From: a virus
Taxonomy: Duplodnaviria; Caudoviricetes
Virus record (IMG/VR): IMGVR_UViG_3300043409_001183
Span: 1 to 33,578 of that record
DNA: 33,578 nucleotides
Direction: 5' to 3' (one strand)
Shown: in pieces, positions 9,233 through 23,349 of the stretch
How the letters are laid out: each line of letters starts with the position of its first letter
How positions within the stretch are numbered: the stretch's first letter is position 1
Position numbers and translations under genes: made by a program
Notes under the pieces: generated by a model
What the model was told of the DNA's origin: nothing
The model's database searches: none
The model's input: the letters and a program-made list of their open reading frames with translations, nothing else

Positions 9233-9500
9233 CGTAAACAAGAAAACCTGAAAATAAACAAGGCTTGTTTATCGCTAGCCCCAACGGGCACAAGGGCGGA
9301 GAAACCTAGTAAACTAATAAACTATTTAATTAATAATATAATAAGAGTAATAAATATATAGTATATAGATTACAATATAATAGCGAAAACGCGTAAAACA
9401 CGTTATATACTTTAAGAAAAGGGGGTTTATTTTGTTTCTTGTTTATTTTAAAGCCTATAAGCCTTAAAATCAAAGATTTATAAAATATTTGCTTGTTTAC
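9233..9500. repeat. Origin-like element copy 1 (convergent AAACAA/TTGTTT iterons around an AT-rich core)
   Basis: First 38 nt match 23033.. at 37/38; collinear similarity continues through the element. Confidence 0.75.
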
Positions 9501-14537: not shown

Positions 14538-14580
14538 ATATACAACGGTGTTGTATATATTAAATATAGTTATATATTTG
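14538..14580 (+). promoter_or_regulatory. Promoter (TATATTTG 14573-14580) with two tandem operators
   Basis: Perfect palindrome ATATACAAC-GGT-GTTGTATAT (14538-14558) and ATATTAAAT-ATA-GTTATATAT (14557-14577). Confidence 0.75.
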
Positions 14581-14604
14581 CTAAGACCTAAAACAGAAAA
14601 AAAA

Positions 14605-15327
14605 ATGATAAAGATGGAAATTAAATCGGTAGGGGGCGTAGTGCTTTTTTCGCACGAGGCAGAAAATAATACAATAAAAGAAACTCTGGAGCGTGCGGAT
14701 TTGAGCGGTGCGAATTTGAGAGGTGCGGGTTTGATGCGTGCGGATTTGAGAGGTGCGGATTTGAGCGGTGCGAATTTGAGCGGTGCGGATTTGAGCGGTG
14801 CGAATTTGAGAGGTGCGGATTTGATACGTGCGGATTTGAGAGGTGCGGATTTGAGCGGTGCGAATTTGAGAGGTGCGGATTTGAGCGGTGCGAATTTGAG
14901 CGGTGCGGATTTGAGCGGTGCGGATTTGATGCGTGCGGATTTGAGCGGTGCGGATTTGATGCGTGCGGATTTGAGCGGTACGGATTTGAGCGGTGCGAAT
15001 TTGATGCGTGCGAATTTGATCGGTGCGGATTTGAGAGGTGCGGATTTGAGCGGTGCGAATTTGAGAGGTGCGGATTTGAGCGGTGCGGATTTGAGCGGTG
15101 CGAATTTGAGCGGTGCGATACTCCCGCAATTTTGTAAATGGTCCCACGGAATCAAAGACGGTAAAATTAGAATAGGCTGTAAAGTTAAAACGATTGAAGA
15201 CTGGGACGCTTTTTTTAATTCAGAAGAAGAGTACGACACACCTAGAAGCTCCTCAGATTTTAAACAAATTAGGGCTATTTTTGAATCCTACAAAGCGTAT
15301 TTAAATGTTTTAAATTCAAAAGGATAA
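14605..15327 (+). CDS. Pentapeptide repeat protein
   Basis: 28 tandem A(D/N)L(S/R/M/I)(G/R) units; start moved to ATG 14605, downstream of the promoter. Confidence 0.93.
14695..15114 (+). repeat. 15-bp coding tandem repeat, 28 copies (consensus GCGGATTTGAGCGGT)
   Basis: Directly visible; 420 bp / 15. Confidence 0.95.
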
Positions 15328-21100: not shown

Positions 21101-21143
21101 GTATAAAAATGTATTGTATATATCAAATTAAGTTTTATATTTG
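21101..21143 (+). promoter_or_regulatory. Promoter (TATATTTG 21136-21143) with two tandem operators
   Basis: GTATAAAAA-TGT-ATTGTATAT (21101) and ATATCAAAT-TAA-GTTTTATAT (21120). Confidence 0.7.
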
Positions 21144-21176: not shown

Positions 21177-21389
21177 ATGACACTTACTCAAGTAATTAGC
21201 AAAGCGGAAAAAGGAAATGTTTTAGTAGCAGAATCTTTAAACGGTCAGTACTTATTCAGCAAAAATGGTAAAAAGGGTTCAGCTTGGTTAGATAATGGCG
21301 TTTTTGATCTAGCTCAAAAAATACATTCTGACGAGGATAGCTCTTGGGCAAAAAATATGAACGATTTGTTTAAATACCTTTCAAAATAA
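21177..21389 (+). CDS. Hypothetical protein
   Basis: ATG 21177 in an A-rich context after the promoter. Confidence 0.75.
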   Translation: MTLTQVISKAEKGNVLVAESLNGQYLFSKNGKKGSAWLDNGVFDLAQKIHSDEDSSWAKNMNDLFKYLSK

Positions 21390-21442
21390 TGAGAGTGGAG
21401 TTTACAGCAGTTACTCGATTAGGCGAAAAAATAACGAGTAAC

Positions 21443-21910
21443 GTCCTGCGGCTATGCGATGGTCGGGAAAAATAAAAAACCGAACTTCAAATTTAGCCAA
21501 TTAATAACAAATACAAACTATTAATTAAATTAAAAACCGAAACCCGACTATTGTATAACCGCTGTTATGGTGCGTTGTGGGTCGTTAAACGAAAAACGCG
21601 TTATGAAAACAAATTTTTGCATTAAAAAAGAAAGAGCTGTAGTAGACTATATAGTATTTACAGAAGAAGAGTTTAAAAAAGCATTATTGGTAAATAGACC
21701 GAAAAACATTTTTAATACTCTTTATTCAACTAAAAAACCTTGCTGGATTATTACTGAATATTTAGAAAACGAAAGGGTTAAATATTATGCTAACGGATGG
21801 GCGCACAAAGAACCTGTTGAGGAAAAAATATCAAACATATATGTTAGTTGGAAAAATCAAGGTCTAAGAGAATGTTATTTTGAAAACGGAGATTAATAAT
21901 GCACCATAAC
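21443..21910. mobile_element. Integron gene-cassette-like element (attC-like site plus one ORF)
   Basis: TAAC at both junctions. Arms 21448-21467 and 21543-21562 are inverted (16/20, 3 of the 4 differences G.T). Core GTTATGGTGC (21564-21573) is the exact reverse complement of GCACCATAAC (21901-21910). Confidence 0.8.
21603..21896 (+). CDS. Cassette-borne hypothetical protein (AT-rich)
   Basis: 97 aa from ATG 21603; stop 4 nt before the inverse core site. Confidence 0.75.
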   Translation: MKTNFCIKKERAVVDYIVFTEEEFKKALLVNRPKNIFNTLYSTKKPCWIITEYLENERVKYYANGWAHKEPVEEKISNIYVSWKNQGLRECYFENGD

Positions 21911-22011
21911 TGCATTATTCAAAAAGAAATAAATAACGATCTTTTAATCTACCTAAACGTAAAAGGCTACTGGAAGTTAGTAAAAAACGAAACTTTAGAA
22001 ATCAAAACACT

Positions 22012-22098
22012 ATGAAAAAATCAGAAAAGTATCTACTATTATGTATCGCGGTCGCGGCGGCAGTTGTCGCGGCATTATTAACCAATTATCAACACTAA
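22012..22098 (+). CDS. 28-aa single-helix membrane peptide (MKKSEKYLLLCIAVAAAVVAALLTNYQH)
   Basis: Read manually; fills the gap between the interrupted gene and 22103. Confidence 0.6.
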   Translation: MKKSEKYLLLCIAVAAAVVAALLTNYQH

Positions 22099-23032: not shown

Positions 23033-23349
23033 CGTAAACAAGAAAACCCGAAAATAAACAAGGCTTGTTTCTTGCCGAGCCCAACGAACGCAAGGGCTGC
23101 AAGGGTTATAAACTAATAAACAATATAATTAATAAGATAATAAGAATAATAAATATATAGTAATAGTATTACATAAGTATATAATATATACACATAAAAC
23201 GCATACACCGCACAAAACGCGTTATAACCTTTAGAAAACGCTGTTTTTATTGTTTCTTTGTTTCTACTAGCCCTAAAAGCCTAAAAATCAATTAATTACA
23301 ATTTATTTCAATTTTAATCTTGTTTCTGTATTGTTTCTGTATTGTTTAT
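23033..23349. repeat. Origin-like element copy 2
   Basis: Homologous to 9233-9500; ends in a triple TTGTTT(C/A) repeat. Confidence 0.75.

Follow-up and report, generated by a model that had tools for sequence, protein, structure and literature searches.

A hairpin-headed, integron-like cassette within a small gene of a freshwater phage, probably inserted by a recombinase acting in trans

The window analysed here (33,578 nt; IMG/VR record IMGVR_UViG_3300043409_001183) is the whole circular genome of a freshwater phage, ~33.35 kb in size, with its first 227 nt repeated at the end. In one of its operons a gene of 52 codons is interrupted by a 468-bp unit which consists, in this order, of a hairpin, a core, a 97-aa cargo gene and an inverse core. 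The locus comprises the following features.

21114..21143, plus strand: promoter-like box (TTG, 19 nt, TATATTTG) 5' of the operon; repeat family D5
21389..21442, plus strand: 5' part of the interrupted gene, 18 codons, aligning with the N-terminal part of database proteins P0004–P0007
21443..21447, plus strand: 5-nt unpaired spacer at the start of the unit; 5/1 spacers occur in 102 of 150 family sites
21448..21467, plus strand: left arm of the attC-like hairpin, identified by folding and family covariation
21468..21542, plus strand: 75-nt A-rich loop, 63% purine; the hairpin body measures 117–119 nt in 93 of 150 family sites
21543..21563, plus strand: right arm (21543–21562), pairing with the left arm with three G-T wobbles, and 1-nt spacer
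21564..21602, plus strand: core GTTATGGTGC and leader, common to cassettes with other genes (L081, L365)
21603..21896, plus strand: cargo gene, 97 aa, of no known family
21899..21910, plus strand: inverse core, with GCACCATAAC at 21901, ending in the right TAAC (21907–21910)
21911..22015, plus strand: 3' part of the interrupted gene, 34 codons and stop, 71% identical to residues 19–49 of P0005

Genes for a terminase, a polymerase, a helicase and an endolysin were recognised in the window, and integrase was absent among the 43 proteins scanned. A six-frame search with PF00589 gave no matches in the window and was positive in 14 of 14 control genomes, in agreement with an earlier note on this DNA which had described the genome as integrase-free; neither method detected a tyrosine recombinase. 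BLASTn against cultured phages produced a sole match, in the promoter region (Flavobacterium phage 11b), and this match together with the site family described below suggests a host within Bacteroidota. The box 5' of the interrupted operon is one of five copies in the window (at 119, 9525, 14551, 21114 and 23342) of a TTG-19 nt-TATATTTG motif which we take to be promoter-like and which presumably acts as a promoter; the copy at this operon may be an early promoter, as it had been labelled. A scan for sigma-70 promoters and terminators returned nothing exceeding shuffled sequences. Directly 3' of another copy lies an ORF (14548–15327) made up of a tandem repeat of 15 nt (5 aa) in ~27 overlapping registers, with PHROG matches of unknown function. 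The window also contains a duplicated AT-rich non-coding module of ~260 nt (9233–9490 and 23033–23308, with blocks 71–86% identical), part of which is kept in related phages L001, L006, L014, L016, L018 and L019.

The inserted unit (21443–21910) has TAAC at both ends (21439 and 21907), the left one (21439–21442) being the final four bases of the 5' part of the interrupted gene, and minus-strand GTT is found at both junctions (21440–21442 and 21908–21910). Positions proposed earlier for the TAAC bounds, arms, loop, cores and 5/1 spacers were all reproduced on recomputation, and the supposed complementarity of core and inverse core proved to be a perfect 10-nt match. Taken singly these features are weak, since the window has 46 perfect 10-nt inverted repeats with arms this far apart and the hairpin by itself is only modestly better in folding than shuffled sequences (z = −1.77, 9 of 200 equally good), so that the case depends on relatives and on the wider family. 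The difference in folding between the two strands is also small at this site (−12.2 vs −11.4 kcal/mol). One antisense match to the promoter box lies in the loop, at 21516; as a trait of the family, however, a promoter in the loop was dismissed, since the box is present in only 23 of the 103 viral sites and 39 of the 187 bacterial ones, at scattered positions.

The cargo gene may begin further upstream, as an in-frame ATG within the core (21567) would lengthen its product to 109 aa, and homologue P0001 starts with identical core-encoded residues. The 97-aa protein had no match in PHROG, Pfam or Atlas, and no relatives were found in viral contigs. A structure model built from six sequences reached a pLDDT of 73; fold searching returned one viral match (an uncharacterised protein of Tenacibaculum phage PTm1, E = 4e-4), while the best Z against PDB was 6.0, under the significance level, and neither family nor fold could be assigned. 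Forty-five columns are invariant across the alignment of six sequences, some of them closely related, which makes a small accessory protein, maintained by selection, the likeliest reading of the cargo.

Once the 468-bp unit is taken out by its coordinates, 52 codons and a stop codon read through as a single frame. At 21389 this frame shares bases with the end of the preceding ORF, and at 22012 with the beginning of the following one, so that the rejoined frame would be coupled to both neighbours, as had been claimed. When the 3' part alone (34 codons, 21911–22012) was searched against 1.84 billion proteins, six matches were obtained, and four of them were proteins of 52–65 aa which also contain the 5' part. 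The match to the 52-aa protein P0005 begins at residue 19, directly after the 18 residues that correspond to the 5' part. The two others, repeat proteins P0008 and P0009, were discarded as low-complexity chance matches. Two metagenome contigs (L360 and L361) carry the gene uninterrupted among close-packed neighbouring genes, with the hairpin absent there; their product is only 50–54% identical to P0005, and CAAT stands in place of TAAC at the site. The expected intact alleles are thus present in four database proteins and two contigs, and contiguous homologues of the joined 52-aa protein span the junction. An empty allele in close relatives was sought in 80 helicase-anchored viral loci and in L081, where neither gene part was matched. 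No joint bypassing the unit was present in contigs of sequencing runs X1–X5, which drop rare variants, and the same contigs gave no sign of recombination, of a circle or of an empty allele of this very phage. Run X5 yielded no contig on the window, runs X5–X8 contributed small shares and were set aside, and no RNA data set was listed as containing the sequence.

Relative to the intact homologues the junctions show no bases lost or gained. Only TAAC is common to both, which confines the crossover to those four bases; a solo insertion of this kind pins the crossover to TAAC and fixes the polarity as well, which arrays alone cannot do. An ATG within the inverse core, at 21899, shares its reading frame with the 3' gene part and could start a 38-aa product and keep the downstream gene coupled.

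Related sites were collected by a pattern scan, which identified 66 viral loci as well as 126 bacterial loci in 6 of the 64 parts of GTDB (~1300 stretches estimated). Among the bacterial loci listed, 77 of 79 belonged by title to Bacteroidota or Ignavibacteria, and the site family is abundant in Bacteroidota chromosomes, where the earlier note had expected attC-like arms. A TAAC-stem-GTTA detector recognised one site in the window and 150 sites in the 66 viral loci, compared with a single site in 1.32 Mb of control sequence (both strands, 80 loci). At most loci a cassette-specific inverse core of 8–10 nt was found downstream. Covariation was assessed in an alignment of 91 sites (the window site and random draws of 45 from 103 viral and 45 from 187 bacterial sites), in which 93.2% of stem cells pair, against 30–52% in slid controls, and double changes occur in 18 of 24 stem pairs; the search pattern fixes some end columns of this alignment, and does not fix the varying middle ones. 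AAC and GTT are invariant in 91 of 91 aligned sites, partly forced by the pattern. The consensus stem pairs in register without a bulge; in place of one it has mismatches at two positions as well as unequal spacers of 5 and 1 nt. Viral and bacterial consensus hairpins are nearly identical, and the nearest relatives of the window hairpin are all viral. The strand reading TAAC-5 nt-stem is enriched in G-T over A-C pairs (265 vs 50 in viral sites, 291 vs 71 in bacterial sites) and is the energetically better-folding strand in 90 of the 103 viral sites and in 143 of the 187 bacterial ones.

Cargo polarity was scored relative to this strand with an ORF cut-off of 50 aa. Among 145 distinct viral sites the cargo lay on the same strand in 65 and on the opposite strand in seven, with 42 ORF-less units and 31 sites without a reachable inverse core; the corresponding numbers for 169 bacterial sites were two, 92, 25 and 50 (p = 2e-35 for 65:7 vs 2:92). 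Bacteria therefore carry classical cassettes, and phages carry the gene inverted. Cargo is also shorter in phages (median 93 vs 188 aa in bacteria), and 179 viral and 158 bacterial cargo proteins have only DNA methyltransferases in common; the longest cargoes include DNA methyltransferases and PAPS-reductase-like proteins. Two binned contigs, L161 and L166, have phage-type polarity and methyltransferase cargo; L161, which accounts for one of the two same-strand bacterial sites, resembles a phage contig that ended up in a bin. Many near-empty cassettes of 110–250 nt were seen in viral loci L083–L147, and the 42 ORF-less viral sites mentioned above head closed units.

The earlier note had left two options for the position of the hairpin before the gene, namely an inverted ORF or recombination of the other strand. 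Insertion through the top strand would leave 1/5 spacers on the gene strand; the observed order is 5/1, with the 5-nt spacer directly after TAAC, so the inverted ORF stands and the other-strand option falls. The same observations bear on the possibility that the unit was a classical bacterial cassette which entered through an uncommon recombination of its top strand, an event that would likewise leave the hairpin ahead of the gene. Such recombination of attC top strands does occur, at low frequency (PMC5027507, accessible text), and the same site family is plentiful in bacterial genomes. However, the gene strand of a bacterial cassette has 1 nt after TAAC and 5 nt before GTTA, which is reversed here, and phages as a rule show this reversed arrangement (65:7 above, and 82:4 among the best 80 of 392 viral loci described below). 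Given also the exclusively viral nearest relatives of the hairpin and the narrow overlap in cargo, this explanation seems extremely improbable. A phage-type pool, and not a bacterial array, is the most likely source of the cassette, since its polarity, hairpin and leader agree with those of other phages.

Polarity also bears on a reading of the hairpin as mainly an RNA leader or processing signal of early phage transcripts, with an incidental likeness to attC. The better-folding, G-T-rich strand is the transcribed strand in phages, as this reading would have it; its bacterial counterpart, however, is antisense to the genes, there were no Rfam matches at gathering score, and the pairing of core and inverse core, specific to each cassette and hundreds of bases apart, would be left unaccounted for. 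We regard it as very improbable.

Reuse of the same hairpin with different genes could be observed directly. In L081 the same hairpin, core and leader (88% identity over 170 nt) precede a nucleotidyltransferase-like gene, this copy of the chassis being the third unit of an array, and in L365 they precede two other genes, with an identical inverse core closing the unit. One hairpin-core-leader chassis thus bears three different cargoes (window, L081 and L365), and the proposed test of finding the same arms with other cargo turned out positive in both contigs. A further instance comes from run X1, which is the probable source of the window and therefore not independent of it. Contig depth in this run was 14.6 on the left flank, 7.5 over the cargo and 17.6 on the right flank; the assembly graph forks at 21554 into a contig of depth 6.9 which continues to an L081-like cargo, and the right contig starts at 21901, exactly where the inverse core begins. 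The simplest reading suggests two cargo alleles at one site, at about half each; as no contig of the run bridges the site, a second phage sharing 30 identical bases is the alternative. The same run contains a 381-nt contig of depth 29.9 which starts precisely at TAAC (window 21439–21568) and appears to be a family cassette with a different core; its start would fit several differing left contexts.

Clustering of the 407 ORFs of at least 150 aa in 79 long bacterial loci produced a sole large recurrent protein cluster, a tyrosine recombinase with 12 ORFs in 11 places. The recombinase is directed toward the array in 11 of the 12 ORFs, a single one (L199) being directed away. The final unit of the array is closed in four bacterial loci by a TAAC without a hairpin, 84–101 nt away from the 3' end of the recombinase gene. 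All five array-bearing flavobacterial genomes carry one copy of the enzyme, which is present in 49 of 81 Flavobacterium genomes, and its association with the narrow site pattern in these genomes was weak (13/16 vs 36/65, p = 0.086).

In the same clustering no transposase family exceeded clusters of two, and no recurrent HUH family was seen among the 407 clustered ORFs. The first of these results argues against movement of the unit by another single-strand enzyme (HUH, IS91-type or REP-like); the related alternative is illegitimate recombination from a phage array. HUH enzymes also act on imperfect strand-specific hairpins, phage genomes are mosaic, and the target resembles the attI-like consensus poorly (see below), all of which would suit such a route. 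The junctions, however, lie exactly at the TAAC that bounds every array unit, with 4 nt shared and no loss or gain against the intact homologues, and we consider this route quite unlikely.

The family recombinase has PF00589 and PF13495 domains and scores near XerA. All 15 array-adjacent recombinases fell below the TIGR02249 integron-integrase cut-off (116–212 vs 265 bits), and the one enzyme aligned to VchIntIA (PDB 2A3V) is without ~43 residues at the position of the IntI insertion, its residues 176–195 covering residues 179–241 of 2A3V. Of the IntI-like gene that had been expected near the arms, an IntI-related recombinase was thus found and a true IntI, with its insertion, was not. These values also weigh against insertion of the unit by a canonical IntI from host or plasmid, as in SALINs at GWT sites. 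IntI1–3 do place cassettes at GWT sites genome-wide (accessible text of bioRxiv 10.1101/2022.09.11.507474), and the target here carries a minus-strand GTT; against this, besides the missing insertion, the published site P12002L_attC1 gave no verified junction with IntI1 in the text available of PMC9892861, where the delivered strand may have been the wrong one. Insertion by a canonical IntI appears decidedly unlikely.

A short form of the recombinase (265–287 aa) was found in phages. It directly follows an array in four of the 50 viral records searched (of 66) and in one of 22 near-complete viral records, so that most cassette-bearing phages are without a recombinase, like the phage of the window. 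The short form was surveyed in the best 80 of 392 viral loci, not dereplicated. Fifty-six of these best-80 loci include 1 kb or more of upstream sequence, in which sites are present in 49, and across the best 80 there were 135 sites upstream and two downstream of the recombinase; their cargo was on the same strand in 82 units and on the opposite strand in four, with 34 ORF-less. Many of the arrays in this best-80 set end at a conserved, attI-like TAAC 36–52 nt before the start codon, for which a consensus was built on 27 distinct flanks in relatives. As a dedicated attI the insertion target in the window was rejected, for its likeness to this consensus is weak (rank 41 of 305 TAAC sites), and the window has none of these terminal sites. 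In a recombinase tree 14 of 15 phage enzymes group (96/86); nine of these had been selected as similar to a single phage enzyme and the outgroup branches are long, and no origin is claimed from this tree.

The platform also exists in a cultured phage, Polaribacter phage Leef_1 (L362:3849–6864), whose array ends at an attI-like TAAC 54 nt before the recombinase gene gp38. The authors who described this phage saw in the integrase an indication of temperate potential, and their available text (PMC8776804) does not use the term integron; the 'integrase' of Leef_1 may not signal lysogeny, and with the whole platform in culture this phage is a ready test system. Two separate recombinase-plus-array platforms (L274 and L279) were noticed in one viral record (G025), and the platform occurs also on very large viral contigs of 208–362 kb (L339, L342, L347 and L350).

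Collectively, the unit is probably a cassette of an integron-like family within a gene that is intact in relatives, inserted by an IntI-related recombinase that a co-infecting phage or the host supplied. By analogy with integrons, excision would yield a circle with core and inverse core paired to each other; the strand TAAC-5 nt-stem-1 nt-GTTA would fold, be cut within TAAC (AA|C, by the same analogy) and be joined to a double-stranded target with GTT on its opposite strand, the recombinase presumably acting in trans. In bacteria the folding strand would be the non-coding one, as with attC bottom strands; in phages the gene is on the folding strand, which places each gene 3' of its hairpin, where it would be expressed from the phage's own upstream promoter. 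It is likely, then, that an excised inverted cassette folded on its gene strand, was joined in trans to a secondary TAAC/GTTA and is read from a phage promoter. The target would be such a secondary site and not the attI-like site of the family, and its weak likeness to the consensus fits the GWT-site insertion described in the accessible text of bioRxiv 10.1101/2022.09.11.507474. A puzzle remains with this mechanism, as the IntI insertion has been called essential for integron function (PMC8138268, accessible text), and the family enzyme, which would have to handle a folded single strand, is without it.

A broader proposal, to which we give about an even chance, is that Bacteroidota phages run a mirror-image integron of their own, in which the recombinase is short and has no IntI domain, the attI-like site lies immediately in front of its start codon, and inverted cassettes on reusable hairpin-core-leader chassis form a pool. 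Phages that have no such enzyme, the one studied here among them, would draw on this pool in trans and exchange cargo within a population. If true, this would be an undescribed single-strand recombination system and a living model of a pre-IntI step, as well as a handle on the making of new cassettes. The origin of cassettes becomes testable because one chassis bears three unrelated cargoes, and so does the question of whether hairpin recombination needs the IntI insertion. The family also offers a traffic route for phage accessory genes.

As a whole, the unit resembles in its workings an integron cassette placed at a secondary GTT, without being a canonical integron: complementary R boxes with an AAC/GTT crossover and one strand that folds better are present, while the IntI-specific domain, extrahelical L-box bases and the classical gene polarity are not. 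The order of gene before attC is found in 92 of 94 bacterial units and is absent in the window and in 65 of 72 scored viral units. The following comparisons rest on the accessible text of the cited sources. With integrons (VchIntIA, PDB 2A3V; PMC5027507) the family shares a core and inverse core that are complementary within each cassette and surround AAC/GTT, a hairpin with imperfect pairing of which one strand folds better through G-T pairs, as reported for attC bottom strands (PMC5027507), and arrays whose last site, next to a tyrosine recombinase, forms no hairpin. Unlike integrons, it has a consensus stem without bulged extrahelical bases, a bacterial recombinase that mostly faces the array and lacks the additional domain by which IntI is defined (bioRxiv 10.1101/2022.02.06.479319; PMC8138268), and, in phages, inverted genes together with the short enzyme. 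SALINs (bioRxiv 10.1101/2022.09.11.507474) are similar in being lone cassettes with one attC-like site at a GTT within a gene and no nearby integrase, and the window likewise has a single detector site, one gene, a GTT target and no recombinase; it differs from SALINs in lying in a phage and in its inverted gene, 5/1 spacers, unbroken 20-bp stem and non-IntI partner.

A literature search, whose coverage excluded subscription papers and bioRxiv supplements, returned no description of this system. Standard integron screens would miss it, because the enzyme is without the domain they require; a single complete integron is named in Bacteroidetes proper in the accessible text on IntegronFinder 2.0 (PMC9024848), in contrast with the common cassette-shuffling system to which this family points. 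Among the closest known systems are XerA and the 'Integron-like' tyrosine recombinase subgroup of Smyshlyaev et al. 2021 (PMC8138268), whose members without the insertion are ascribed no cassette system in the text available. The CALINs of phages (Qi et al. 2023, PMC9892861) are likewise clusters of attC-like sites in virulent phages without integrase, and P12002L_attC1, between methyltransferase genes, is a short site of the form seen in the window; according to the accessible text it is the only one of six sites without a verified IntI1 junction. The published P12002L attC2 corresponds, judging from the forward oligos, to the terminal end of the array read backwards. At a loose threshold, ~ten family-like sites were seen around methyltransferase genes at 29–41 kb of Polaribacter phage P12002L (L363). 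In the accessible text of PMC9892861 the CALIN sites are handled as ordinary attC sites for IntI1, with inverted polarity, empty allele and dedicated recombinase undescribed.
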